Shown here: in pieces, positions 1 through 57,935 of the stretch
How the letters are laid out: the number at the start of each line of letters is the position of its first letter
Numbering within the stretch: position 1 is the stretch's first letter
DNA from: an uncultured Acidobacteriota bacterium
Lineage (GTDB): Bacteria; Acidobacteriota; Terriglobia; UBA7540
Direction of reading: 5' to 3'
Length of the DNA: 64,000 nucleotides
NCBI GenBank assembly: GCA_963804995.1
Contig: CAWDSK010000003.1
Span: 576,001-640,000, forward strand
The notes under the pieces: generated by a model
Database searches by the model: none
Told to the model about the DNA's origin: nothing
What the model saw: only the letters and a program-made list of their open reading frames with translations
Translations under genes and position numbers: made by a program

Positions 1-1100
1 TTGTAGCCTGCGCACAAGTAGTTCAGCCCCGGTTCTCCGTCAGGCGTACGCGCAAATCGATGTTTCGGGCACTCCCCGTTGCAGGCAAACCGCACATCGC
101 ACTCGCGGCAATAGCGGGGAAGCGTATCGCGCTTATTCTCTCCGAACTTGCGCTGCTGCTCCGATTGGACCATAACTTCCAGCGGAGCGTCCATAATGTT
201 GCCGAGTTTGTTCTCCGGATAAACAAAGTGGTCGCAGGAATAAAGGTCGCCCGTGTGCTCGATGGCCATCGCCTGACCGCAGGTTTCCCGGAACACGCAC
301 AGGCTTGCGCCCATTCCGTACCAAATTTCCAATGCCACGTCGAAAATCTGCACAAACTGACGCCCCACATCGCGCCGCACCCACTCATCGAAGATGGCAC
401 AGAGGAACTTGCCGAACGCCAGGGGTTTGACCGACCAGGGAGTAACCTCACTCTCGCCTGGGAAGGAGGGTTGGATCAACACCAGTCCATCATTGCCGGG
501 GGACTTCGTGGTGCGTTCGACAATGGGGATGAACTGCATAAACCCGCTGCCAATTTCCTTGAGGAACCGATACACGGCAACCGGCTGTTCGGAATTGACT
601 CGATGAACGACCGTAAGAGTGTTGAATTGCACGGCATGCTTCTTCAAAACTTGAATGCCGTTCATCACCTTATCGAAAGTCGGCTGCCCGCCCTTATCCA
701 CGCGGTAGCAATCATGCACTTCGCGCGGACCGTCGATCGAGACCCCCACCAGAAAATCGTGTTCGGCTAGAAACTCCCCCCAAGTGTCGTCCAGCAGAAC
801 GCCGTTGGTTTGGAACGCATTGGTGATAGCTCTGCCTTCTGCATATTTGTTTTGCAGGTCCACGACGTTCTTGAAGAAATCGATGCCCAGGACGGTGGGT
901 TCGCCGCCTTGCCAGGCGAAGTTGAGCGGACCCGCAGGTTGCGCTCGGATGTACTGTTGAACGTACGAATCCAAAACCGCTGGCCGCATGGCCCAATTGT
1001 TCGTATCCGGATACAGTTTTTCCTTCTCCAGATAGAAACAATATTTGCAGTCCAGATTACAAATCGGACCGACGGGCTTGGTCATGATGTGAAACGGCAA
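1..1100 (-). CDS. Anaerobic sulfatase maturase (radical SAM/SPASM); runs off the left edge
   Basis: Absent from the ORF track because there is no stop in the window. Manual translation gives LPFHIMTKPVGPICNLDCKYCFYLEKE (CxxxCxxC), FAWQGGEPT, QTNGVLLDD, VSIDGP and a SPASM Cys cluster (YSCDHFVYPE, YCRECDVRFACNGECPKHR). Start uncertain: TTG 1100 or ATG 1085. Confidence 0.95.
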   Translation of the reverse strand, partial: MPFHIMTKPVGPICNLDCKYCFYLEKEKLYPDTNNWAMRPAVLDSYVQQYIRAQPAGPLNFAWQGGEPTVLGIDFFKNVVDLQNKYAEGRAITNAFQTNGVLLDDTWGEFLAEHDFLVGVSIDGPREVHDCYRVDKGGQPTFDKVMNGIQVLKKHAVQFNTLTVVHRVNSEQPVAVYRFLKEIGSGFMQFIPIVERTTKSPGNDGLVLIQPSFPGESEVTPWSVKPLAFGKFLCAIFDEWVRRDVGRQFVQIFDVALEIWYGMGASLCVFRETCGQAMAIEHTGDLYSCDHFVYPENKLGNIMDAPLEVMVQSEQQRKFGENKRDTLPRYCRECDVRFACNGECPKHRFARTPDGEPGLNYLCAGY

Positions 1101-1230
1101 CGAGCTCGAACATCCGAAATCGCCATCCTGTATGGGAAAGATCGCCCCACGAATTGCCAGCCAGGTTCCTATGATAGCAAGGTCTGCCCCTTCACGCACA
1201 GAACCGTGGGTAGTGGTGTCATTTGGAAGT

Positions 1231-20171: not shown

Positions 20172-21203
20172 TCAATCGGCCTGGCGCTCGTCCTTGGGGC
20201 GGAAGATCTGCGTCAGGATGACCCCGATCGAAACCAGGGCAATGCTGAGCAGCATAAGCAGATTCAGGAATTCGTGCAGGAAAAAGTGGGCGAATAAAGT
20301 GGCAACCAGAGGCGTGAGGGAAGAAAAAGCATAAACGCGCGCCACGGCCATGAGGCGCAGGGCCGTAAACATACAGTAGATCGCGAAGACACCGGAAAGG
20401 ACACCGCTGGTCAGCAGGGCAGCCAGGGTGCGCCAGGTTGTGGATTGCAGCGATGCGCCGTGCCCTGAAATCAGCAAGCCGGCGATACCCACCGCTACGC
20501 TCGTGACAAATTGCAGGAAGATCGCCACTGATTGGTGCGCGCCGCGAAGCTGCCCGTCACGCCACAGGACCCCGGAAATCCCGTAGGTCAACGCCGTGCT
20601 AAGAGCCAGCGGGATGGCCCAATACCACAGCGGGGAAATCGGCTGGCCCCGAACCTGTCCGAGCGCTAGCCCAACCAATCCCAGAAAAATCAAGCCCACA
20701 CCCACAAGAGCATAGCGATGAATCCGTTCATGCAGAAACACCCACGCGATCAAGGTTCCCCAGATGACGTAGGTCTCCTGAACCGGTATGGTGATGGTCA
20801 CTCCGCCGATCTGAATTGCAAAGTAGTAAAGGAAGAGTCCCAAAGTGGAGATGACGCCCGCGGCGACAAAAGCCAGGATGGCCCGCGGCCCAATGTACTG
20901 CGGCGAACTCGGTCGCAATTGATCGAGCGTGCGGTGCTTCCACACCAGGATACAACCCAGCAGCAAGCTGGGCAGTCCGCGCAGCACCGGACCAATGACC
21001 GGGTCGGCATGGACCACGGCGAGACGGTCGAAAATGTTAGCTGAGGCGTAACCCGTTACCGTCCCCAGCGCCCAGGGCTCACCGCGACGGCGTGGATTGG
21101 GGTTGGATGGGGTTTCCATATCGGTCGGGATCGTGGTCTCCGCACTGTTATCACAGGCCTCAGCGATTATATCGGGTTGAAGGGTTTGGGCAAGCTGATT
21201 CAC
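20172..21203 (-). CDS. DMT/EamA family transporter
   Basis: About 10 TM segments in two EamA repeats (IAWVFLHERI, LFAHFFLHEFL). Start GTG 21203 or ATG 21119. Confidence 0.88.
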   Translation of the reverse strand: MNQLAQTLQPDIIAEACDNSAETTIPTDMETPSNPNPRRRGEPWALGTVTGYASANIFDRLAVVHADPVIGPVLRGLPSLLLGCILVWKHRTLDQLRPSSPQYIGPRAILAFVAAGVISTLGLFLYYFAIQIGGVTITIPVQETYVIWGTLIAWVFLHERIHRYALVGVGLIFLGLVGLALGQVRGQPISPLWYWAIPLALSTALTYGISGVLWRDGQLRGAHQSVAIFLQFVTSVAVGIAGLLISGHGASLQSTTWRTLAALLTSGVLSGVFAIYCMFTALRLMAVARVYAFSSLTPLVATLFAHFFLHEFLNLLMLLSIALVSIGVILTQIFRPKDERQAD

Positions 21204-21297
21204 AAGCCTTTTACAATTTCATGACGTATTCTCGCCACCCTCGTTGGATACTACTTCCGGTTGGATTTGAATAGGCGGCGCCCGGAGAGCAATTGCC

Positions 21298-21408
21298 GGT
21301 ACTGGTGCAGTTTGACGTAGCGGCGGGTTTACCCCGCCATCGTACGTCGAGATAACTCGATCGATGGCGGGGTAAACCCGCCGCTACGTCAGCAAACTGA
21401 ACCAATAC
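21298..21408. repeat. REP pair (GACGTAGCGGCGGGTTTACCCCGCCAT family) inside ggtactggtgcagtttg / caaactgaaccaatacc inverted ends
   Basis: The same REP occurs at ~46592-46642, ~55135-55208 and ~57855-57935. Confidence 0.88.
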
Positions 21409-21424
21409 CCAATTGCTTTGCTTC

Positions 21425-21454
21425 TTGAGGGGGCCACCTAAGAAGTGATACATT
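21425..21454 (+). promoter_or_regulatory. Sigma70-like promoter driving the FMN riboswitch leader
   Basis: TTGAGG-18 nt-TACATT with TGn extended -10, ending 16 nt upstream of the aptamer P1. Confidence 0.5.
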
Positions 21455-21470
21455 AGATACGGAATTTAGT

Positions 21471-21668
21471 GACCTTCGGGGCAGGGTGAGGACTCGCAGC
21501 ATTTTGATTCGGCTGCAACTCCAATTCCCGATCGGCGGTATAGCCCGCGAGGGGAGATCCGAATCGCCAGCGTGCACTAAGCTGTGTTACGAGGGCGAAA
21601 CGAATCTGCAATCCCCAGGATCCGGTGAAACTCCGGGGCCGACGGTACAGTCCGGATGGAAGAAGGTC
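21471..21668 (+). ncRNA. FMN riboswitch (RFN element)
   Basis: GACCTTCGGGGCAGGGTGA..AATTCCCGATCGGCGGTATAGCCCGCGA..GGATCCGGTGAAACTCCGGGGCCGACGGTACAGTCCGGATGGAAGAAGGTC contains all conserved RFN blocks in order; P1 is GACCTTC/GAAGGTC. Confidence 0.97.
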
Positions 21669-21788
21669 AGGGCCGGTCCTTGTTTGGTGGACAATACTGC
21701 CTTCGCAGGTAGCGGAGGTGGCCGTCCATCTGTGTACCCTACCGCTCTGATCCCCTCCTCGCTCGTGCCCCGCCGTGAGGAAATTCCC

Positions 21789-24700
21789 TTGGGAAAGAAC
21801 CGGGAAAGAATTCTTTCACCGCTAATCATTCTCGTCTTCGAAGTTCTCTTTGCCTTGTGCGGTCTGACCCTGGCACCGTGGGCGGGCCGCGCGCAAAACT
21901 GGAACAGCCAACTGGAAGGGCTCATTACCGATCCCAGTGGCGCGGTCATTCCCGGAACCCAGGTTGAGTTGAAGAACTCTGCCACAGGGCAAATCCGCAA
22001 AACCAAAACCGATCAGCAAGGGTTCTATACTTTTCCTCTCGTACCGGTAGGGACCTACGACCTGCAAGTGGTGGCCCCCGGCTTTGCCACGCGCCTCCTG
22101 CATGGCTTGGTTCTGCAAGTCGGGCAGACGCCTCGCGTCGATTTGACACTGCAACTCGCGCGCGGTCAGGAGGTGTTGCAGGTCCAAGCCAGGACCCCGC
22201 TGGTCGAGACGGCTTCCCCTGCCATCGGCGACGAGCTCTCGAACCAACGCGTTACTTCCCTTCCCTTGAACGGGCGGCAATTCTCGCAGCTTGCGCTGCT
22301 CGCCGCCGGCGCCGTCCCACCCTATGCGAATGGCGCCACGCAGCAGTTCAATACGCCCGCCCAAGGTCTGGGATTTTCCGTTAATGGCCAGCGCTCCGAA
22401 CGCAACAACTTCTCTCTGGACGGCATCACGCTGATTGAACCTTTCGCCTTCAGCCTGACTGCGAATCCCTCAACGGATGCCATCCGGGAGTTCCGCGTGG
22501 TTGAGAATTCCTATTCCGCGGAACAGGGGATGCTTTCCGGCGCGCAAGTCGATATCGTGTCACGATCAGGTTCGAACCGGCTTCAGGGCACCGTCTACGA
22601 GTACTTGCGCAACAGCGCGTTCGACGCCAAGAACTTCTTTGATGACCCCACCCGTCCTATCCCACCCTATCGGCAAAACCAGTTCGGGGGAAGCTTGGGT
22701 GGACCCGCGCGCCGCGACCGGACATTCTTCTTCACCAATTACGAGGGATTTCGCATTCGCCAGAGCATCACGAACACCACCCTGCTCCCGACTGCAGCGG
22801 AGCGCCAAGGTGATTTCAGTGGGATCAATCCTGCCACCAGCCAGCCTTTTCCCGCGATCATTAATCCCGCGACCGGTGCGCCCTTCTCCGGAAATCATGT
22901 TCCTATCGCGGACATGAGTTCTGTGTCGCGGGCGCTGCTTGCCCTCGTGCCGCTGCCGAACCAATCCACTGGGGCGCTGGGTACGAATAACAGCATCGAT
23001 ACGGGGCTCCATGATCTGACCTCTGACCAGTTCACGGTGCGGGTCGATCACCAACTCAATTCCCGGCAGCAACTCTTCGGGCGCTTTCTGTTTTTTCAAG
23101 ACACTCAACTCTTTCCTTTCGTGCCAGACAGCTTTGCCAATAATCCGCCTGCCCCGCCCGGCTTTGGAGACAACGTCCACGACTCCGGCCGCAATCTGGC
23201 TCTGGGCCTCACCTCCGCCTTCCGGCCCACCATGATCAACGATTTTCGCTTCGGTTACTCTTACTACCACGGCGCCAAAGCAGGCCAGAACATCCGCAGC
23301 GGATTTCTTCAGTCACAGGGTTTGTCGCGCGCACCCGGCGCAACCAACGACGGCATTCCTGCCCTGGCCATTCCAGGTTACGCCGACCTGGGAGACAGCG
23401 ACATCTTCCAGCCGCAGTATCGCAAGAATCACACTTTTCAAGTGACTGACAGCCTGGTGTGGGTAAAAGGGCGGCACACTTTTCAGGTCGGAGGCGACTT
23501 CCGGCGGCTGCGGCTCTTCTACTTGGTCGAGGACTTCGGCCAAGGTGTGTTCCAATTCAGTGACGGGGCCAGTTCAGTTTCCGGCACGGCCTTCTCTGAC
23601 TTTCTGCTTGGCAGGCCGTTCCTTTCCTATGCCCAGGCTGGCAATTCCGGCGGCAACGACCGCCTCGACTATGTGGGAGCGTACTTCTCGGATGAATTTC
23701 ACGCTACCCCGCGCCTGAGCCTCACCTACGGCCTGCGCGAGGAATTCCACACGCCCCCGGTGAACATCGAGGGCCGGGCGTCGATCCTCGATCCCTCTAA
23801 TGCCCTGCGGTTCATCGTGCTCAATAACCGTGGCCAGGCTGACTCCCTGATTGCGAATCCGCTGGTCCAACAACTCAGTTCGCTTTACGGATTGCAATTC
23901 GAAACCTCGCAGCAGGCAGGATTACCAGATTCACTCATCAAGCCGGACTGGGCCAACTGGGCGCCCCGCTTCGGCTTCGCTTACGACCTGAATGGCAACA
24001 GCAAATCCTCGCTGCGCGGGGGCCTCGGTGTATTCAATTCCCTGATGGAACTTGATTACACTTCGGAGACGCGCCTGAGTGCGCCCATTACCGACTTCCT
24101 CTTCGGGCTCGACTTGTGCCGCTTCTACGGCCCCGGCGCGTGCGGTCAGTCTTTTGCTCCACCCGTGCTCACCTATCAACTCGGTTACACGCTCGGCAAT
24201 CAGGAGCCCACCGCTATTTCGTCTCCGCCCAACATCCGCAACGGTTATGTTTATGAGTGGAGCCTTTCCTATGAGCGTGAGCTCGCGCCCAACACCATCG
24301 TCTCGGTAAGTTACACGGGATCCGACGGCCACAAGTTGCCGCGGCGGGCTCTGCAAAATCAAGGCGTGCCCAATCTGCCGGGAGAGCGGCGTGGCTATCA
24401 TCCGCAACCTGGCTCCAACCAATTCATCCGCGCCACTGACGTAGACTCGAATTACAATGCGCTCGTGGCCCGCCTGGAGCGCCGCCTTTCCGGCGGACTC
24501 TCCTTCGCAGGCGGCTACACTTACGGCAAATCCCTTGACACCACCTCGGGGCTCGATGGCACCAATCAGCCGCAGGACAATTACAATATGCGCGCAGAAT
24601 ATGGCCCCTCCGATTTCGACATGCGCCAGCGCTTCACATTGTCGGGAATCTGGCAGTTGCCGTTCGGAACGAATGGGCGTTGGGCGAAGCAAGGAGCGGC

Positions 24701-25181
24701 CCGGAGCATCGCCGGCGATTGGCAACTCGCGAGCATCGTCACACTTCAAACCGGCCAGCCCGTCACCGCCATCCTCGCCACGGCGCTCAGCGGCACACAG
24801 TCGAACGGCACCGATCGCCCCAACTTGATTGCTGACCCCAATCTTCCCGGCAGCCAGCGCCGCCCGACCCGTTGGTTCAATACCAATGCCTTCGCCACCC
24901 CGCCAATCTTTAACGATGCGCTGGGCGCCTACAGCATTCCCGGGAATGAGGCGCGAAATGTGATTACCGGCCCGGATCTGAAAAGTTGGGACGCCAGCCT
25001 GGAACGTAACTTCCGCCTGACCGAGCGCTCAAAGATAATCTTCCGCACGGATTGCTTCAACCTCACCAACCATCCCAATTTCAATCGCCCCGGGTTGATC
25101 TTTGGTACGTCGAATTTTGGAAAGATTACGTCTGCACAAAACTCCCGGCAGATTCAGCTTTCCCTGCGCTTGAATTGGTAA
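21789..25181 (+). CDS. TonB-dependent receptor (Oar-like), FMN-riboswitch controlled; candidate flavin transporter
   Basis: LEGLITDPSGAVIPG, SLPLNGRQFSQLA, VYEYLRNSAFDAKNFF, C-terminal FNLTNHPNF...RQIQLSLRLNW. GAGGA RBS precedes TTG 21789, which is followed by a signal-peptide-like segment. Confidence 0.93.
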   Translation: MGKNRERILSPLIILVFEVLFALCGLTLAPWAGRAQNWNSQLEGLITDPSGAVIPGTQVELKNSATGQIRKTKTDQQGFYTFPLVPVGTYDLQVVAPGFATRLLHGLVLQVGQTPRVDLTLQLARGQEVLQVQARTPLVETASPAIGDELSNQRVTSLPLNGRQFSQLALLAAGAVPPYANGATQQFNTPAQGLGFSVNGQRSERNNFSLDGITLIEPFAFSLTANPSTDAIREFRVVENSYSAEQGMLSGAQVDIVSRSGSNRLQGTVYEYLRNSAFDAKNFFDDPTRPIPPYRQNQFGGSLGGPARRDRTFFFTNYEGFRIRQSITNTTLLPTAAERQGDFSGINPATSQPFPAIINPATGAPFSGNHVPIADMSSVSRALLALVPLPNQSTGALGTNNSIDTGLHDLTSDQFTVRVDHQLNSRQQLFGRFLFFQDTQLFPFVPDSFANNPPAPPGFGDNVHDSGRNLALGLTSAFRPTMINDFRFGYSYYHGAKAGQNIRSGFLQSQGLSRAPGATNDGIPALAIPGYADLGDSDIFQPQYRKNHTFQVTDSLVWVKGRHTFQVGGDFRRLRLFYLVEDFGQGVFQFSDGASSVSGTAFSDFLLGRPFLSYAQAGNSGGNDRLDYVGAYFSDEFHATPRLSLTYGLREEFHTPPVNIEGRASILDPSNALRFIVLNNRGQADSLIANPLVQQLSSLYGLQFETSQQAGLPDSLIKPDWANWAPRFGFAYDLNGNSKSSLRGGLGVFNSLMELDYTSETRLSAPITDFLFGLDLCRFYGPGACGQSFAPPVLTYQLGYTLGNQEPTAISSPPNIRNGYVYEWSLSYERELAPNTIVSVSYTGSDGHKLPRRALQNQGVPNLPGERRGYHPQPGSNQFIRATDVDSNYNALVARLERRLSGGLSFAGGYTYGKSLDTTSGLDGTNQPQDNYNMRAEYGPSDFDMRQRFTLSGIWQLPFGTNGRWAKQGAARSIAGDWQLASIVTLQTGQPVTAILATALSGTQSNGTDRPNLIADPNLPGSQRRPTRWFNTNAFATPPIFNDALGAYSIPGNEARNVITGPDLKSWDASLERNFRLTERSKIIFRTDCFNLTNHPNFNRPGLIFGTSNFGKITSAQNSRQIQLSLRLNW

Positions 25182-25199: not shown

Positions 25200-26945
25200 C
25201 TAGTCCTCCAACGTCGAGAGGTCGCCGGTGGGCAGGCCTAATTCCCAGGCCTTCAGGACGCGGCGCATGATTTTCCCGCTGCGCGTTTTGGGTAGCTTTT
25301 CGCGGAATTCAATCTCGCGCGGAGCCGCGTGCGCCGCCAGTTTTTGCCGCACGAATTTCTGAATCTCATCTTTCAGCTCGTCGCTCGGTTTGTATCCTTC
25401 GCGCAGCGAGATGAACGCTTTGATGATGTGACCGCGCATGGCGTCGGGCTTGCCAATCACTCCGGCTTCGGCGACCGCCGGGTGCTCAACCAGGCAACTC
25501 TCGACCTCGAAGGGCCCCACGTTTTCGCCGGCCGTAATAATCAGGTCATCGACGCGCCCCTGGAACCAGAAATACCCGTCGGGGTCTTTGTAAGCGCTGT
25601 CGCCCGTCACGTACCAGCCCGGAATGCGGAAATAAGTCTCGTAGCGCTCCGGTTGTTTCCAGATGGTCCTCATCATACCGGGCCAGCCGGGCTTTATCAC
25701 CAAGTTGCCGAGCGTATTGGGAGGCACTTCCTTGCCCTCGTCATCGACGATTGTGGCGTGGACACCCGGCAGGGGCCGCCCCATCGAACCGGGCCGGATA
25801 GTCATAGAGGGATAATTCGAAACCAGGATATGTCCTGTTTCAGTCATCCACCAGTTGTCATGGATGCGCCGGCCGTAGGTTTTCCATCCCCACCACACCA
25901 CTTCCGGATTCAGCGGCTCCCCTACGCTCAGCACGTGGCGGAGGCTCGAGAGGTCATACTTTTCGACCACCTCTTCGCCCGCCCCCATCAGCATGCGGAA
26001 GGCGGTGGGCGCGCTGTACCAGATGTTCACGCGGAAGCGCTCGATGGTGTGGTACCAGTCGGCAGCGTTGAAGCGCCCGCCGCGGATGAGGTTGGTCATG
26101 CCGTTCAGCCAGGGTGAAAAGATTCCGTAGGAAGTTCCCGTCACCCAACCCGGGTCAGCCGTGCACCAATAGACATCGTCTTCGCGCATGTCGAGCACCC
26201 AGCGGCCCGTCATCAAGTGCCCGAGCATGGCGCGTTGGACGTGCAACACGCCCTTGGGTTTTCCCGTTGAGCCCGACGTGTAGTGGATGATCAGAGGATC
26301 GTCCAGCGTCAGCCACTCGATTTCCGTCTTCTCCTCGGCTTTGTCCATCAGGGCTTCGTAGCTATGCTGCGATTCCGACAACTCGCTGGCCGCCGCGCCC
26401 ACCAGGATAATGTGCTTCAGCGCGGGCAATTCGTATTGCGGCACGCGTTCGACGAGCGCCGGAGAGGTCACCAGCGCCACGGCTTCGGCGTTCGCCATGC
26501 GGTCCCTGACCGCGTCTTCCATGAAGGCCTCGAAGAGGGGGTTCGGAATCGCGCCGATCTTCAGGATGCCGAGGATGGCGATATAAAGTTCCGGGCGTCG
26601 TCCCAGGAATACAAACACCCGGTCGCCCTTTTTCACTCCCAGCTTGCGCAGAACGTTTGCGAAGCGGTTGGACTGTAGCGACAGGTCCTCAAAAGTAAAG
26701 CGCGAGGTGTGTTCCTTGTCGGTATAAATCAGCGCCAGCTTGTTGCGACGGCCGCGCGTCAACTGGCGGTCAATGGCCTCGTGCGCCATGTTGACCTTGC
26801 CGGTTTTTGCCCAATCAAATTCCTTCTCTGCGTCTTCCCAGCGGAACGTCGAGTAAAGCCCCTCATAATCCTTCAGATGGTGGGCCTGGGGATCGTCCAC
26901 CGGCTTCAAGACATTCAGCGGGTCCGCAGACGCTTTCGTGGCCAT
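25200..26945 (-). CDS. acsA: Acetate--CoA ligase
   Basis: YTSGSTGKPKG, WCTADPGWVTGTSY, DNWWMTETG, LPKTRSGKIMRR, GDLSTLED. Confidence 0.95.
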   Translation of the reverse strand: MATKASADPLNVLKPVDDPQAHHLKDYEGLYSTFRWEDAEKEFDWAKTGKVNMAHEAIDRQLTRGRRNKLALIYTDKEHTSRFTFEDLSLQSNRFANVLRKLGVKKGDRVFVFLGRRPELYIAILGILKIGAIPNPLFEAFMEDAVRDRMANAEAVALVTSPALVERVPQYELPALKHIILVGAAASELSESQHSYEALMDKAEEKTEIEWLTLDDPLIIHYTSGSTGKPKGVLHVQRAMLGHLMTGRWVLDMREDDVYWCTADPGWVTGTSYGIFSPWLNGMTNLIRGGRFNAADWYHTIERFRVNIWYSAPTAFRMLMGAGEEVVEKYDLSSLRHVLSVGEPLNPEVVWWGWKTYGRRIHDNWWMTETGHILVSNYPSMTIRPGSMGRPLPGVHATIVDDEGKEVPPNTLGNLVIKPGWPGMMRTIWKQPERYETYFRIPGWYVTGDSAYKDPDGYFWFQGRVDDLIITAGENVGPFEVESCLVEHPAVAEAGVIGKPDAMRGHIIKAFISLREGYKPSDELKDEIQKFVRQKLAAHAAPREIEFREKLPKTRSGKIMRRVLKAWELGLPTGDLSTLED

Positions 26946-26976: not shown

Positions 26977-27132
26977 AAGGGCAGTGGCTAGTGGTTAGTG
27001 GCTAGTGGATAGTGACGAGCGCCTCCGAGATCCTAAGTGGGAAGAATCACTCCAATTTTGTTGGCTTCGGACCTCGGACGCCGGAAACGATTCTTGCTAG
27101 CCACTAGCCACTAACCACTAGCCACTGCCCTT
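26977..27132. repeat. Perfect 32-bp inverted repeat built from heptamers (AGTGGCT/AGTGGTT)
   Basis: aagggcagtggctagtggttagtggctagtgg (26977-27008) is the reverse complement of 27101-27132. Confidence 0.93.
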
Positions 27133-28442
27133 CCATATGCTTCATCCAGCAATTCGATCACATGCATCACCCGCTGCCCCTTGCCCTGGCGCTTCACGCC
27201 GGCGCTGAGTTGCAGCAGGCACCCGGGATTGGCAGTCAGCACCACTTCTGCACGTGTCTCTTCAATGCGGCGCAACTTGTTTTCCAGCAGCCGCTCCGAC
27301 ATCTCGTTGTGCACAACATTGTAAACGCCCGCGCTGCCGCAGCAGATGTCAGCTTCCTTCAGCTCCACCAGATCCAGCCCCGGGATGGCGGCCAGCAGCT
27401 TGCGTGGCGCCGTCCGGATACGCTGCGCGTGCCCCAGATGGCAGGGGTCCTGATAAGTTGCCCGCACTTTCATTATTCCCAGTTCCCGGTTCAAGTCAAT
27501 CCCCGCGAGGAATTCCGTGACGTCGCGCAATTTTTCGACGAAGGCCTTGGCGGGCTCATAAAGCTCCCGGTCTTCCTCCTCGAAGAGCAGCGGATACTCC
27601 TTGAGGACGGAGCCGCAGCCTGCGGCGTTGGTGATCACCGCGTCGAAGTCTCCGGCCAGGAACGCATGGATGTTGCGTTTCGCGAGGTCACGAGCCATGC
27701 CGCGCATGCCCGCGTGCACGTGCAAGGCGCCGCAGCACCCCTGGTCGCCTGGAATCACGACCTCGCAACCGTTTTTCGCGAGCACGCGCACCGTAGCGTC
27801 ATTGAGCCGCGCGAAGGAGAGGTTCGCAATGCATCCCGCAAAGAAGGCCACGCGGTAGCGCCGCGTCCCCTCCGCCTCAACGGTCGTCCCCAGGCGTCCA
27901 TAGAAGAAGGGTTTCTCCATGCGGGGCGCGAGTTCCGCCACGCGCGCCAGGCGACCGGGAAACAATTTCAAGACGCCTGAGCCCAGCACCAACTTTTCAA
28001 GCCCTGAGCGCTGATAAACGCGCAGCATGCCGCCCAACAATTTCAAACGTCCCGGATGCGGCAAGACTTCACAATAAAAGAGCTTGCGCAGCAAGGTGGT
28101 GAGCGGCGGACGGTGATAGTATTTTTCGATTTGCCCGCGCGCCGCTTCCACCAGCTTGCCGTACTCAACTCCGGAGGGGCACGCGGTTTCACACGCGCGA
28201 CAGTCAAGGCACAGATCGATGTGGCGGACAAAACTTTCACCGAGCGGCAGGCGGCCTTGCTCTACCTGAATGATCTGGTAGATGCGCCCGCGGGGCGAAT
28301 CCATCTCCACACCCAACTCGCGATAGGTGGGGCAGGCGTTCAGGCACAAGCCGCAGTGCACGCAGCGGGAATAGTCCGCCCAACGCGGCGCCTCACCCGG
28401 GCCGTAGCCGTTGCGCTTTTCGTCCTTGTTCAAATTCTCCAC
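27111..28442 (-). CDS. glcF: Glycolate oxidase iron-sulfur subunit
   Basis: CVHCGLCLNACPTY, SPRGRI, CLDCRACETACPSG and two CCG domains (CCGAL, CCGSAG). GTG 28442 is preferred because the longer start lies inside a REP. Confidence 0.92.
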   Translation of the reverse strand: MENLNKDEKRNGYGPGEAPRWADYSRCVHCGLCLNACPTYRELGVEMDSPRGRIYQIIQVEQGRLPLGESFVRHIDLCLDCRACETACPSGVEYGKLVEAARGQIEKYYHRPPLTTLLRKLFYCEVLPHPGRLKLLGGMLRVYQRSGLEKLVLGSGVLKLFPGRLARVAELAPRMEKPFFYGRLGTTVEAEGTRRYRVAFFAGCIANLSFARLNDATVRVLAKNGCEVVIPGDQGCCGALHVHAGMRGMARDLAKRNIHAFLAGDFDAVITNAAGCGSVLKEYPLLFEEEDRELYEPAKAFVEKLRDVTEFLAGIDLNRELGIMKVRATYQDPCHLGHAQRIRTAPRKLLAAIPGLDLVELKEADICCGSAGVYNVVHNEMSERLLENKLRRIEETRAEVVLTANPGCLLQLSAGVKRQGKGQRVMHVIELLDEAYGRAVASG

Positions 28443-28489
28443 GCTCGCTTGGTTTCCAGTCTTAGTGGTCTCTGCGAATTGTGTGAAGT

Positions 28490-28935
28490 AACCCCTCACC
28501 CGTCCCGCCCCGGCTGATGAAAACGCCGGCGGCGGTCCACCCTCTCCCCTCGGAGAGGGCTATGAATTCACGTTCTTCCCTTATCCAACTATATTGACTC
28601 TCCTTCGAAGTGCGCTAGTACTTGCTTGGATTAATTCGCGCATTTTTAAGTCGTTGAAATCAAAGTGCGACCAACAGCCAGTTACGTACGCTAATTAAGT
28701 CAAGCAAGTACTAGTGCACCGGACACACAGGGCGTTCATGTTAGTGCTGACCCCCTCACGCCCCCCCGGACCCTCAATCGCCGCGGCGACCGAAGGGGGA
28801 GTTAGGTTGATTTCGTTCCCTCGGCCTCAAGTTCGGGGGGCTTGATTTGAATCCACAACCCTCGCCCCTTTGGGGGAGAGGGTGGACCGCAACCGGCGTC
28901 CTCATCAGCCGGGGCGGGCCGGGTGAGGGGGTCCC
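28490..28935. repeat. Repeat cluster between glcE and glcF: CCCCTCACCC-family REPs flanking an AT-rich 110-bp inverted-repeat element (28610-28719)
   Basis: REPs at ~28490-28560 and ~28858-28932; gtgcgctagtacttgcttggattaatt / aattaagtcaagcaagtactagtgcac are complementary at 24/27 positions. Confidence 0.85.
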
Positions 28936-28982
28936 AACGCCACTCCATGATGTAAGGCCAAATCCCAGCACCCATCCAAAAT

Positions 28983-30320
28983 CTAAAATCCCAAGAACCG
29001 TCCCGGCGACAGAATCCCTTTCGGATCCCAGGCGGATTTCATTTTGCGCATGGCTTCGATGTCATCGCCGGGCGCGCCCCAGACATCGACTTGGGCTTTA
29101 AGCTCCGCCGGGCAATGCTCGATGACCAGCGACCCGCCCAGATCGCCAGCGGCTTTGCGGAGGCGCGCCACCAAGTCGCCTGACTTCTCACTGAACTTCT
29201 CTTCCAGCAGGCAGACGTGGACAATGCCCACACCCGCAAAAACCGCGACCGATATGCGTTCCGCCGCAGCCGCCTGCTGCGCCTGTTCGAGGAATGTTTC
29301 GCCGGCGGCAATGGGCAGGGCGGCTTTCAGAACTGTCACATCGCGATATTTTTCCTTTAGCCACAGGGGAAGATTTGAGACCCGCTCCCACACCGTCTCC
29401 GCAGATTCCAGGCGCGCCATCATGGCGCCAGCGGCGCGGGCGAGTTGCCCCAAATCCCGTTCACAGCGTTCGATCACGCGGTGTGACCCACCCACTTCCA
29501 TCCAGAGTTCCAGACCGTTCTGCCCGGCATTCGATGCAGCACCATCGAGGAGACCGATGGCAGAATCATCCAGCAACGCCAGCCGCAGGGCATCAATCGG
29601 CGAACGCAGAATAATGCGACGTAGATCTCGCGCCGCGTCGAGGGTCGAGATCTCGAAAGCGAAGGTGGCGCGTTCCGGCGGCTTCGGATAAAGTTTCAGG
29701 TTGGCTTCCACAATGACGCCGAGCGTCCCGTATGAACCAATCAGAAGTTTGCTCAGGTCATAGCCGGCAACGTTTTTCACTACTCGCCCGCCGGTCTTCA
29801 AAATCTTTCCGTCGGTCGCGGCAATCTTCAATCCCAGGACCATATCCCGCGGGCCGCCATAGCCTTGCCGCAGGGGTCCCGCCGCGTTGGCCGCGATAAT
29901 CCCTCCGATGCTGGCCTTCGCGCCGCCCCTCGGATCGAGAGGCAGCCACAGCCCATGGCGCCCCACAAAGTTCTGGAGATCGCCGAACTTCATGCCGGGC
30001 TCGACGCTGATCGTCAGGTCAGCCGGCTCGTAGTGCCAAACCTGATTGAGTTCCTTTAATGATAGAGCGAGGTCGTATCGCCGCGGCGGGTTGCCGATCG
30101 AAAGCTTGGTGCCATTGCGAAAAGGAATAACGGCCAGTTCGTGCGCGGAGGCCAGGCTCAGCACTGCCGCCACCAGCTCTGCCGTGGGGGGGTAGACCAC
30201 GCAGCTTGGGACCTTGCCATCCACGGCCACGGCCGCACAGGCCTCGGGGTCTGTCACCACACGCGATTCGCCCAGCAGCGCTGTCAATTCCGCCCGCACG
30301 GATAGGAGCGCGACCGTCAC
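28983..30320 (-). CDS. glcE: FAD-binding oxidoreductase, glycolate oxidase subunit
   Basis: YEPADLTISVEPG, GGRVVKNVAGYDLSKL, GSYGTLG, WDPKGILSPGR. GTGA overlap with the glcD stop. Confidence 0.9.
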   Translation of the reverse strand: MTVALLSVRAELTALLGESRVVTDPEACAAVAVDGKVPSCVVYPPTAELVAAVLSLASAHELAVIPFRNGTKLSIGNPPRRYDLALSLKELNQVWHYEPADLTISVEPGMKFGDLQNFVGRHGLWLPLDPRGGAKASIGGIIAANAAGPLRQGYGGPRDMVLGLKIAATDGKILKTGGRVVKNVAGYDLSKLLIGSYGTLGVIVEANLKLYPKPPERATFAFEISTLDAARDLRRIILRSPIDALRLALLDDSAIGLLDGAASNAGQNGLELWMEVGGSHRVIERCERDLGQLARAAGAMMARLESAETVWERVSNLPLWLKEKYRDVTVLKAALPIAAGETFLEQAQQAAAAERISVAVFAGVGIVHVCLLEEKFSEKSGDLVARLRKAAGDLGGSLVIEHCPAELKAQVDVWGAPGDDIEAMRKMKSAWDPKGILSPGRFLGF

Positions 30321-31744
30321 AAGACACCTCCCGCGGCCCGCTCCACACGCAATTCCCCGCACATTTTCCCAGTGGGCAAAAGCTTTCCGGGATTAAAGCG
30401 CCCCTGAGGATTGAAAAGGTTCTTGATCCGGCGCATCAAATCCAGATCGTCGTCGGAGAAAATCAACGGCATCAGGTCCGATTTTTCGAGGCCCACGCCG
30501 TGCTCACCGGTGATGGAGCCGCCCATCTCCACGCACTTGCCGATAATTTCTTTGGCGGCCTTGAGGACGCTCGCCGTCTGCTCCTTGTCGCGCGAATCGT
30601 ACATGATGAGAGGATGCAGGTTTCCATCGCCCGCGTGGAAGATGTTGCCAATGTGTAAATCGTATTTCTTCTCGATGTTGCCGATGAATTCCAGCATCTC
30701 CGGCAACTTGGTGCGGGGGATGACGCCGTCCTGAACGTAGTAGCTGGGACTGATGCGGCCCAGCGCCCCGAAGGCATTCTTCCTTCCCTTCCACAACAGG
30801 TCGCGCTCCTCCGCCGTCCGGGCGCGCCGCACATCACGCGCCTGATTCTCGCGGCAGACACTCTCAATTTCATCCGCGTGCTCTTCCACGGCTTCTTTCA
30901 AGCCCTCGACTTCCGCCAGCAACACAGCGGCGCAATCCATGGGATAGCCGGCATGGGTGGCTGCTTCCACGGCGCGCAAGGTGAATCCATCCATCATCTC
31001 GAGAGCGGCGGGCGTAATGCCCCGCGCCGTAATGGCAGCCACAGTGCGCGTGGCGTCCGCGATGCGGTCGTAAATGGCGAGGAGCGTTTTGACGGCTTCA
31101 GGCCTGCGCGAGAGCCGCACCGTTGCCGCCGTGACGATGCCGAGCGTCCCTTCCGAACCGACAATCACTCCCGTCAGGTCGTAGCCCGGCCGGTCCCAGT
31201 GCGCCGCGCCCGTATGCATCACTTCGCCATCGGGCAACACCACCTCCAAGCCCAGCACGTGGTTGGTGGTGACGCCATAGGCCAGAGTGTGCGGGCCGCC
31301 GGAATTCTCCGCCACGTTGCCGCCAATCGTGCAGGCCTTTTGGCTGGAGGGATCGGGGGCATAGTAGTAGCCCTCGTCGGCGACGGCGAGGGTGAGGTCG
31401 AGATTCACCACGCCGGGCTGGACGCGGGCGCGCTGGTTCTCTAAATCAATTTCGAGAATCTGCTTCATCCGCGAAAAGCCCACCAGGATGCCGCCCTCGG
31501 TAGCGACCGAGCCTCCGCTCAGGCCCGTGCCCGCCCCCCGCGCCACCACGGGCAGATCATGCCGTACGGCAAGTTTTACAATCGCGACCACATGCTCTGT
31601 CGTGCGGGGGAAGACCACGACGTCAGGCTGGCGCAAAGAGGAAAGGGCGTCGTACTCATAGAGCATCAGGTCTTCCTGATGCCATAAGACGCCGTCCTCG
31701 CCCACGATTTTGGCGAGTTCCCGAGCAAAACTCTTGGAATTCAT
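30317..31744 (-). CDS. glcD: Glycolate oxidase FAD-linked subunit
   Basis: RGAGTGLSGG, YAPDPSSQKACTIGGNVAENSGG, FHAGDGNLHP, GSITGEHGVG, FNPGK. Confidence 0.94.
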   Translation of the reverse strand: MNSKSFARELAKIVGEDGVLWHQEDLMLYEYDALSSLRQPDVVVFPRTTEHVVAIVKLAVRHDLPVVARGAGTGLSGGSVATEGGILVGFSRMKQILEIDLENQRARVQPGVVNLDLTLAVADEGYYYAPDPSSQKACTIGGNVAENSGGPHTLAYGVTTNHVLGLEVVLPDGEVMHTGAAHWDRPGYDLTGVIVGSEGTLGIVTAATVRLSRRPEAVKTLLAIYDRIADATRTVAAITARGITPAALEMMDGFTLRAVEAATHAGYPMDCAAVLLAEVEGLKEAVEEHADEIESVCRENQARDVRRARTAEERDLLWKGRKNAFGALGRISPSYYVQDGVIPRTKLPEMLEFIGNIEKKYDLHIGNIFHAGDGNLHPLIMYDSRDKEQTASVLKAAKEIIGKCVEMGGSITGEHGVGLEKSDLMPLIFSDDDLDLMRRIKNLFNPQGRFNPGKLLPTGKMCGELRVERAAGGVL

Positions 31745-55114: not shown

Positions 55115-55242
55115 CTAGCAGGCTGATGAAAAACGACGTAGCGGCGGGTTTACCCCGCCATCCGCTGTTGAAATCGTTGGCGATATGGCGGGGTAAACCC
55201 GCCGCTACCTCGCACCGTGAGGGCTTTTCAACAGCCTGCTAG
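55115..55242. repeat. MITE-like ends CTAGCAGGCTG(A/T)TGAAAA enclosing a GACGTAGCGGCGGG REP pair
   Basis: ctagcaggctgatgaaaa ... ttttcaacagcctgctag. Confidence 0.85.
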
Positions 55243-57854: not shown

Positions 57855-57935
57855 GACGTAGCGGCGGGTTTACCCCGCCATTTGGCGAGGTACTCTCGCC
57901 GGCAGGAAATGGCGGGGTAAACCCGCCGCTACGTC
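57855..57935. repeat. GACGTAGCGGCGGG REP pair
   Basis: gacgtagcggcgggtttaccccgccattt ... aaatggcggggtaaacccgccgctacgtc. Confidence 0.88.

Follow-up and report, generated by a model that had tools for sequence, protein, structure and literature searches.

A receptor gene behind an FMN riboswitch and a divergent permease gene

The window analysed here, a 64-kb stretch of DNA from an uncultured bacterium of the class Terriglobia (Acidobacteriota), carries a flavin mononucleotide (FMN) riboswitch directly upstream of the gene for a large TonB-dependent receptor, with the gene for an EamA/DMT-family permease diverging from the riboswitch on the opposite strand (Table 1). Judged by covariance model and conserved pocket blocks, the RNA element is a full-length FMN riboswitch. 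Its match to Rfam family RF00050 scored 92.4 bits against a gathering threshold of 66.2 (E = 6.4e-20), covered positions 1-138 of the 138-position model without truncation and was the sole gathering-level RNA match that cmscan returned for the window. The alignment agrees with the consensus in the conserved segments GGGCAGGGUGA, CGGCGGUA, AGCCCGCGA, CCGGUGAAA and GCCGACGGUA.AGUCCGGAUGG.AGAAG; in the rare FMN-rejecting variants described in PMC6298564, a conserved G is replaced by A. Helix P1 is formed by positions 21470-21477 paired with 21662-21669, and two hairpin loops of the aptamer carry long insertions of 37 nt and 55 nt. The aptamer is the only FMN riboswitch of the 7.55-Mb genome, which is assembled in 9 contigs and 92% complete.

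A sequence-only reading of the locus had proposed a complete RFN aptamer at 21471-21668 behind a sigma70-like promoter, and both proposals were borne out. The promoter matches the consensus at 8 of 12 positions, one under the threshold of our consensus scan, and so was not listed by it, though the TTGA and TGnTAnAnT boxes recur at constant spacing in all 12 relatives from the genus, with diverged flanks. The same reading held that an Oar-type receptor of about 1130 residues was the only gene the switch could control, which agrees with what we found. Since the next gene, for an acetate-CoA ligase, is convergent, the receptor gene is, as read from gene order, monocistronic and the sole gene that the riboswitch could control in cis.

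The receptor frame is open from 21486 to 25181, and comparison places its start at TTG 21789, with GAGG (21777-21780) eight bases upstream. Of the 12 genus relatives, 11 have an aligned TTG that is preceded, at a distance of 8-9 nt, by a Shine-Dalgarno (SD) sequence of the GAGG or GGAG type, and upstream of TTG 21789 the genus alignment contains indels that are not multiples of three. The recorded gene call begins 19 codons earlier, at an implied GTG start at 21732, and gives a protein of 1149 aa; we think that this call is too long, TTG 21789 being favoured by the genus comparison.

Domain matches and structure prediction indicate that the receptor belongs to the class of large-barrel TonB-dependent transporters with a fused N-terminal CarboxypepD_reg domain (Oar-like). 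An AlphaFold2 model built from 104 homologs reached a mean predicted local distance difference test score (pLDDT) of 87.6 and a predicted template modelling score (pTM) of 0.86, and the consensus of 104 homologs contains an E.V.V pattern. When the model was compared with the PDB using Foldseek, 357 chains matched at E <=0.001, and all of the 45 matches listed were TonB-dependent transporters, led by FusA (E = 8e-37) and followed by YddB, Cir, PfeA, PqqU and BtuB. Most listed matches had a target-normalised TM-score of 0.64-0.77. Sequence identity was 8-12%, and the alignments, of about 1000-1085 columns, extend well past the barrel. The Pfam Plug family matched residues ~183-249 with 15.2 bits, under its cut-off of 23.9 (E = 0.032). 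A sequence search at E <=0.001 gave 102,912 representative relatives of the receptor, and the nearest other clusters are at most 49% identical. Its orthologs, which come from metagenome-assembled genomes of Terriglobia or Acidobacteriota, are publicly labelled as carboxypeptidase-regulatory-like domain proteins or as hypothetical.

Table 1. Positions of the riboswitch, receptor, permease and neighbouring features (window coordinates, or residues of the receptor)
Feature	Position	Strand	Description and basis
EamA/DMT-family permease	20172..21119	-	~315 aa from ATG 21119; divergent from riboswitch; maximal open reading frame (ORF) to 21203
Promoter-like site for permease	21166..21193	-	TTGCCC, 16 nt, TATAAT; 10/12 consensus match only; upstream of ATG 21119, within the longer ORF
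Promoter of riboswitch-receptor transcript	21425..21454	+	-35 TTGAGG 21425-21430, 18-nt spacer, extended -10 with TG 21446-21447 and TACATT 21449-21454; read from sequence
FMN riboswitch aptamer (RFN element)	21468..21671	+	Rfam RF00050 (cmscan)
Expression platform	21672..21788	+	Variable hairpin ~21686-21730; pyrimidine box UCCUCGC...UGCCCCG 21756-21772; SD region GUGAGGA 21775-21781
TonB-dependent receptor, Oar-like architecture	21789..25181	+	1130 aa; Pfam, AlphaFold2, Foldseek
Predicted signal helix	residues 11-27	+	Sequence and model
CarboxypepD_reg beta-sandwich	residues 42-122	+	PF13620, 76.1 bits; confident in model
Candidate TonB box EVLQVQA	residues 128-134	+	Read from sequence; strand 129-133 in model
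Putative plug	residues ~129-250	+	Mixed alpha/beta segment in model
Barrel	residues ~253-1130	+	OMP_b-brl_4 PF25183 at 257-1123, 738 bits
Acetate-CoA ligase (next gene)	25200-26945	-	NF003313, 943 bits; convergent

Receptor and ribE do not co-occur in the family genomes

Profile hidden Markov model searches of the window's genome detected no ribE (riboflavin synthase, PF00677), ribH (lumazine synthase, PF00885), ribB (DHBP synthase, PF00926) or ribA (GTP cyclohydrolase II, PF00925); as a positive control, the ribH and ribB models each matched in all 14 of a set of well-known genomes. Another member of the same family has a riboswitch-ribE-ribH-ribBA-ribD operon, and tblastn of its RibE, RibH, RibBA and RibD against the window's genome returned only two short deaminase-domain matches, for RibD. 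The genome keeps a RibF of bifunctional size with a flavokinase domain. On this gene content, with ribE, ribH, ribB, ribA and ribD all absent, the organism is predicted to be unable to make riboflavin.

We then compared 101 genomes, all metagenome-assembled, from the taxonomic family of the window's organism (soil and peat). Lists of presence and absence for the riboswitch, ribE, the receptor and the permease were combined by hand. Receptor orthologs were found in 55 genomes, 54 of them at 65-78% identity over most of the length (fragments up to 83%) and one, in G037, at 52%; four further matches, at 35-38% identity, are paralogs. The ribE gene was found in 41 genomes and ribB in the same 41 plus one atypical match (in G071), and RibF in 94. 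No genome had both receptor and ribE, and five had neither (G010, G016, G039, G058 and G065, 66-96% complete). All seven unpublished genomes in the set (G018, G044, G073, G083, G088, G096 and G100) belong to the ribE group, in genera g18 and g23, and they bear partly on the counts for these two genera and on nothing else; with them removed, 55 receptor genomes stand against 34 ribE genomes among 94, still without overlap.

The riboswitch followed the same division. At E <=0.001 it was detected in 75 of the 101 genomes, and G011, where it is cut by a contig end, brings the total to 76, of which 25 lie directly before ribE and 51 before the receptor. Among the latter, 49 share a contig with the receptor gene and two (G050 and G077) lie at contig edges, the remainder of the gene being on a different contig, as would be expected from an assembly break. 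Of the other receptor orthologs, one (G045) lacks the 5' end of its gene and three have no detectable riboswitch. The first 30 riboswitch loci alone had divided into 13 with the receptor downstream and 17 with ribE downstream. The sequence-only reading had suggested checking whether orthologs keep the upstream riboswitch and whether carriers lack rib genes; both hold, the first for 49 of 55 on one contig plus the two at contig edges, the second with ribE in 0 of 55 receptor genomes and 41 of the 46 others. As read from these genomes, the receptor has the marks of a riboswitch-controlled vitamin receptor: its switch is conserved and its presence is coupled to need.

Two features of the family data deserve separate mention. 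Many aptamers (loci L053, L065, L054, L047 and L044) carry insertions of 107-130 nt in one hairpin loop. Five aptamers that scored 41-52 bits under fast filters rose to 78-91 bits, as complete aptamers, when rescored with permissive filters, and one, in G071, stayed at 44 bits; the fast-filter scores fall below the Rfam cut-off, so routine annotation would miss such long-loop aptamers. G071 has the receptor and no ribE, and its atypical ribB (DHBP synthase) match (G071:C148:13176-13751, in a 479-aa frame) scored 297 bits versus about 260 in the family; it could be contamination, a transferred ribBA or an enzyme in other use.

A second collection gave the same picture. Six peptide patterns retrieved 78 loci, and two aptamer motifs were present upstream of all 15 further orthologs (64-83% identity), 127-455 nt before the aligned start, and upstream of none of the 63 paralog loci, 7 of which had less than 500 nt of upstream sequence. 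Beyond the family, a sample of 400 genomes of the phylum, from which the best two candidates per genome were taken, yielded a single receptor relative at E <=1e-200, which is 49% identical and has no riboswitch upstream. The rest of the order is represented by only four genomes, of another family, none with an FMN riboswitch. Elsewhere in the phylum the FMN riboswitch is rare: a sample of 150 genomes outside the family contained one (E <=1e-8), there before ribB (locus L198), versus 75 of 101 within it.

Repeated switching between the two states

Because related genomes are not independent, we inferred a tree of RibF, using 41 of its 94 matches, which covered 28 of 30 genera and no unpublished genome; one mistranslated row (G002, branch length 5.8) was then dropped, leaving 40. 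The label rib operon versus receptor changes five times on this tree, at least three of the changes being forced by branches with a Shimodaira-Hasegawa-like approximate likelihood ratio test (SH-aLRT) value of at least 95. Shuffled labels required 12.2 changes on average, and none of 500 shuffles was as low as five. An approximately unbiased (AU) test rejected a single clade of the rib-bearing rows (log-likelihood difference 86.5, p = 1.7e-7); the groups had been set by gene content beforehand, and the test was run after the first tree had been seen.

Three states can be told apart on the tree. In state A (genera g4, g9, g14, g20, g21, g22 and g28, and genome G051) the riboswitch precedes a rib operon, in state B the riboswitch-receptor pair and the permease occur without rib genes, and in state C (g7, g18 and g23) rib genes occur without riboswitch, receptor or permease. 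State C is nested inside a state-B clade (SH-aLRT 99), from which we infer that biosynthesis was regained there and the whole uptake set lost. The tree points to repeated switching, at least three times, between the rib-operon and receptor states.

A candidate inner-membrane partner

The divergent permease matches PF00892 (EamA) with 96.8 bits in two stretches, corresponding to the two EamA repeats of the DMT fold. Residue 29 of the long ORF is a methionine, and most homologs have 314 aa. Orthologs with 58-85% identity were found in 59 of the 101 family genomes. None of the 55 receptor genomes lacks one, and in our own comparison of coordinates, with a limit of 3 kb, the permease lies near the receptor or riboswitch in 38 of these 55. 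Only one of the 41 ribE genomes (G020) has it, there divergent from the riboswitch-rib operon. Transporters of the RibU type (PF12822) and the PnuX type (PF04973) were not found in the window's genome. The permease is a likely inner-membrane partner of the receptor and is proposed to carry riboflavin.

PMC6298564 counts permeases of COG0697 (DMT) among the riboswitch-associated riboflavin transporters of the FMN class, and PMC4418817 describes riboflavin transport by ImpX and RibN. With its two EamA domains the window's permease resembles these proteins. The likeness is one of domain and family, and the window's permease does not lie downstream of an FMN riboswitch. PMC4418817 further places RibN only in Proteobacteria and ImpX only in bacteria with the biosynthetic pathway, whereas the permease described here is almost confined to genomes that lack it.

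A leader that may control access to the ribosome-binding site

Folding with ViennaRNA suggests how the switch could act on the receptor gene. With the aptamer closed, UCCUCGC (21756-21762) pairs with GUGAGGA (21775-21781), leaving GAGGA unpaired with a probability of 0-0.08. In the unconstrained minimum-free-energy fold, 21756-21772 pairs with the 5' strand of the aptamer (21477-21492), including the invariant GGGGCAG. A single box can thus take part in two alternative pairings, one with the aptamer and one with the ribosome-binding site.

Comparison of leaders gave further indications. A TGCCCC box lies 73-109 nt past the aptamer in 36 of 48 orthologous leaders, compared with 4.4 on average, and never more than 12, in shuffles, and leaders of several other genera form a strong GCCCC-loop-GGGGC hairpin just 5' of a TTG start. 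In two leaders, read by eye, changes on both sides keep the pairing (TTCCCC/GGGGAA and ACGCCCC/GGGGCGT). Within the genus alignment the hairpin between aptamer and box has five pairs with compensatory changes and is the only part to show them. A scan of the leader for an intrinsic terminator (hairpin plus U run) found none. On balance, and with moderate assurance, the folding model leads us to favour control of the receptor by occlusion of its ribosome-binding site.

Several leaders of genus g17 (L044 367-508 and L047 994-1135) contain 100-240 extra bases between the TGCCCC box and the mature N-terminus of the receptor. Part of this added sequence is palindromic and has a weak match to a plant microRNA model on both strands (36-44 bits versus a cut-off of 168); the addition is probably a small inserted repeat.

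Other features of the locus

The interval between the permease gene and the riboswitch promoter holds a long perfect palindrome (21300-21400) that is a dispersed repeat. It gave 214 blastn-short matches in the genome, mostly to its arms of 27-28 nt, with one full copy, 98% identical, elsewhere on the contig and further occurrences at ~55135-55162 and 57855-57935 of the window; it looks like a repetitive extragenic palindromic (REP)-type element. An 80-aa ORF on the reverse strand (21211-21453) was treated as spurious, because it matches no Pfam family and overlaps this palindrome. In G032, where the riboswitch is missing, a 128-aa ORF (L072 683-1066, reverse strand) lies between receptor and permease, and by eye its N-terminus looks like a PIN-domain toxin.

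Beyond the acetate-CoA ligase gene, adjacent genes at 27111-30362 on the reverse strand encode a CCG/4Fe-4S protein and a FAD-linked oxidase (FAD, flavin adenine dinucleotide) that resemble subunits of the glycolate-oxidase type; the oxidase is an example of a flavoenzyme that would need a cofactor supply in a predicted auxotroph. A search of sequencing runs found no RNA run with the window's stretch, and small shares of the stretch in six DNA runs.

Discussion

Our analysis points to a probable FMN-repressed system for flavin salvage that spans both membranes of a bacterium unable to make riboflavin. That the receptor imports riboflavin, FMN or a precursor had been suggested by the sequence-only reading, and this suggestion gains support from the retention of the riboswitch by the orthologs and from the lack of rib genes in their carriers. 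The divergent permease, the predicted auxotrophy across the family and the disappearance of the whole system from rib-bearing lineages without a riboswitch did not figure in that reading. At low FMN the aptamer would be open, the box UCCUCGC...UGCCCCG would pair with its 5' strand and the SD region would be free, so that the receptor is made. The receptor would capture external riboflavin (or FMN or FAD) and pass it to the periplasm with energy from TonB, the DMT/EamA permease would move riboflavin across the inner membrane, and RibF would turn it into FMN and FAD. High FMN would then close the aptamer, and the freed box would pair with GUGAGGA and block translation of the receptor, possibly followed by decay of the untranslated mRNA or by Rho-dependent termination.

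Several observations weigh against this proposal. The receptor sequence itself gives no indication of substrate and matched no PDB chain at E <=0.01, and riboflavin, at 376 Da, is small enough for porins, which means that uptake does not strictly need an energised receptor. Three receptor orthologs (in G002, G032 and G037) lack a detectable riboswitch. The permease lies outside riboswitch control, on the opposite strand with its own promoter-like site, and 17 of the 55 genomes, among them all eight of genus g19, show no linkage between it and the receptor. Its family is large and has exporters among its members, and the names it attracts are generic (weak DMT/SMR matches in NCBIfam, 'DMT family transporter' for orthologs, EamA clusters in the protein atlas) and neither support nor oppose a link to riboflavin. 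In the leader, the SD region also pairs with early coding sequence when the fold is unconstrained, one sequestering pair is broken in the window itself, and the genus alignment gave no covariation for the sequestering pairs; these pairs never vary, so the test speaks neither for nor against the helix. The RibF tree is that of one gene, with 318 columns, and the family comparison is limited to metagenome-assembled genomes.

If the function is as proposed, control could still be exerted mainly on transcription, by Rho-dependent or premature termination, and not by occlusion of the ribosome-binding site. We hold this to be unlikely but far from negligible: besides the missing covariation, the extra bases between box and mature N-terminus in some leaders of another genus would suit it, and PMC5756330 notes that in Gram-negative bacteria an FMN riboswitch can affect both transcription and translation. 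The leader, however, has no intrinsic terminator, its SD region is predicted to be paired when the aptamer is closed, and the GCCCC/GGGGC hairpins of other genera join box and SD sequence. A different substrate is less probable still. The receptor could import a non-flavin such as an iron chelate, with FMN control reflecting the known coupling of iron and riboflavin metabolism. Among characterised TonB-dependent transporters, most of those similar to the model take up siderophores, haem or proteins, and there are papers on a regulatory axis between iron and riboflavin (PMC6041382 and PMC5816637). Yet an iron receptor would have no reason to occur only in genomes without ribE (55 versus 0) and to be gone from the three rib-bearing genera that lack the riboswitch. 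These auxotrophs must also have some way to take up flavin, and no other gene of the genome is FMN-controlled. We consider the iron-chelate explanation improbable.

The remaining two explanations can be given very little credence. The pairing could be a leftover, with the rib operon deleted and the riboswitch stranded beside an unrelated receptor without any selected link; the riboswitch-rib operon arrangement of 25 family genomes, and the permease of G020 that diverges from such an operon as if in the state before replacement, are what such a history might leave behind. A neutral relic would be expected to decay where the receptor protein has diverged to 65%, whereas receptor-linked aptamers still score 78-97 bits in many genera, the TGCCCC box keeps its distance, and the SD sequence, TTG start and promoter boxes are conserved within the genus. 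Least probable of all, by a small step, is that the receptor works outward and exports a protein or metabolite, to be shut off at high FMN. The combination of CarboxypepD_reg domain and barrel is common to Oar-like proteins, and Oar of Myxococcus reportedly works outward, but it is hard to see why an auxotroph would repress an exporter by FMN, the receptor's distribution complements that of the biosynthesis genes, and the nearest other clusters are no more than 49% identical.

The proposed flavin salvage system can be compared with known arrangements. Vitamin receptors named by their riboswitch are established for cobalamin, and a TonB-dependent receptor preceded by a cobalamin riboswitch is tabulated in PMC5756330; for thiamine, PMC6977713 describes a receptor-permease pair, OMthi and PnuT, in Bacteroides thetaiotaomicron. 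The receptor's predicted fold is of the same class as BtuB, whose chains were found by Foldseek at E ~1e-25 to 1e-26, a likeness of fold only: searches of the PDB (E <=0.01) gave no homology by sequence to BtuB or another characterised vitamin receptor. It also differs from BtuB in its proposed ligand, a flavin in place of a corrinoid, in being about twice as long with an extra N-terminal CarboxypepD_reg domain, and in its proposed inner-membrane partner, a DMT permease where BtuB works with the ATP-binding cassette (ABC) system BtuCDF. OMthi and PnuT are closest in logic to the receptor and permease described here, but differ in vitamin, riboswitch class, phylum and permease family (Pnu versus DMT/EamA), and here the permease gene is divergent and outside riboswitch control. 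The canonical arrangement, in which an aptamer of the same family stands before ribE-ribH-ribBA-ribD, is found in 25 genomes of this very family; at the window's locus an outer-membrane receptor is controlled instead, and the biosynthetic genes are absent.

In the accessible text of a 2015 survey (PMC4418817), a 2013 regulon study (PMC3766115), a 2019 study of gut micronutrients (PMC6593275) and a 2025 review (PMC12702654), only cytoplasmic-membrane systems appear; 'TonB' occurs in none of the first three, and 'outer membrane' only once, in PMC6593275. A literature search, with subscription journals outside its coverage, found no paper that connects TonB-dependent transporters with FMN riboswitches or with the uptake of riboflavin. 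The genomic evidence makes the receptor a strong candidate for a so far undescribed outer-membrane flavin gate. What may be new is the combination of a riboswitch-controlled receptor for a vitamin without a described receptor, a different receptor architecture and a candidate permease partner.

We think it rather likely, with somewhat less confidence than we have in flavin salvage as such, that the Oar-type receptor and DMT permease represent the first flavin-dedicated outer-membrane transporter, and that a whole uncultured family of Terriglobia lives on its neighbours' riboflavin, with the system acquired or kept when biosynthesis was lost, and receptor, permease and riboswitch discarded together when it returned. 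The crossing of the outer membrane by flavins is a step that is missing from surveys of riboflavin transport, as far as their accessible text goes, and a substrate named by a riboswitch would be a first clue to function in a very large family of orphan receptors. Switch, receptor and permease are small, defined parts that could be tested in E. coli. For the organisms themselves, our results predict riboflavin auxotrophy in over half of the species sampled from this family of Acidobacteria, which bears on the cross-feeding of vitamins in soil and peat and suggests that riboflavin should be supplied when their cultivation is attempted.

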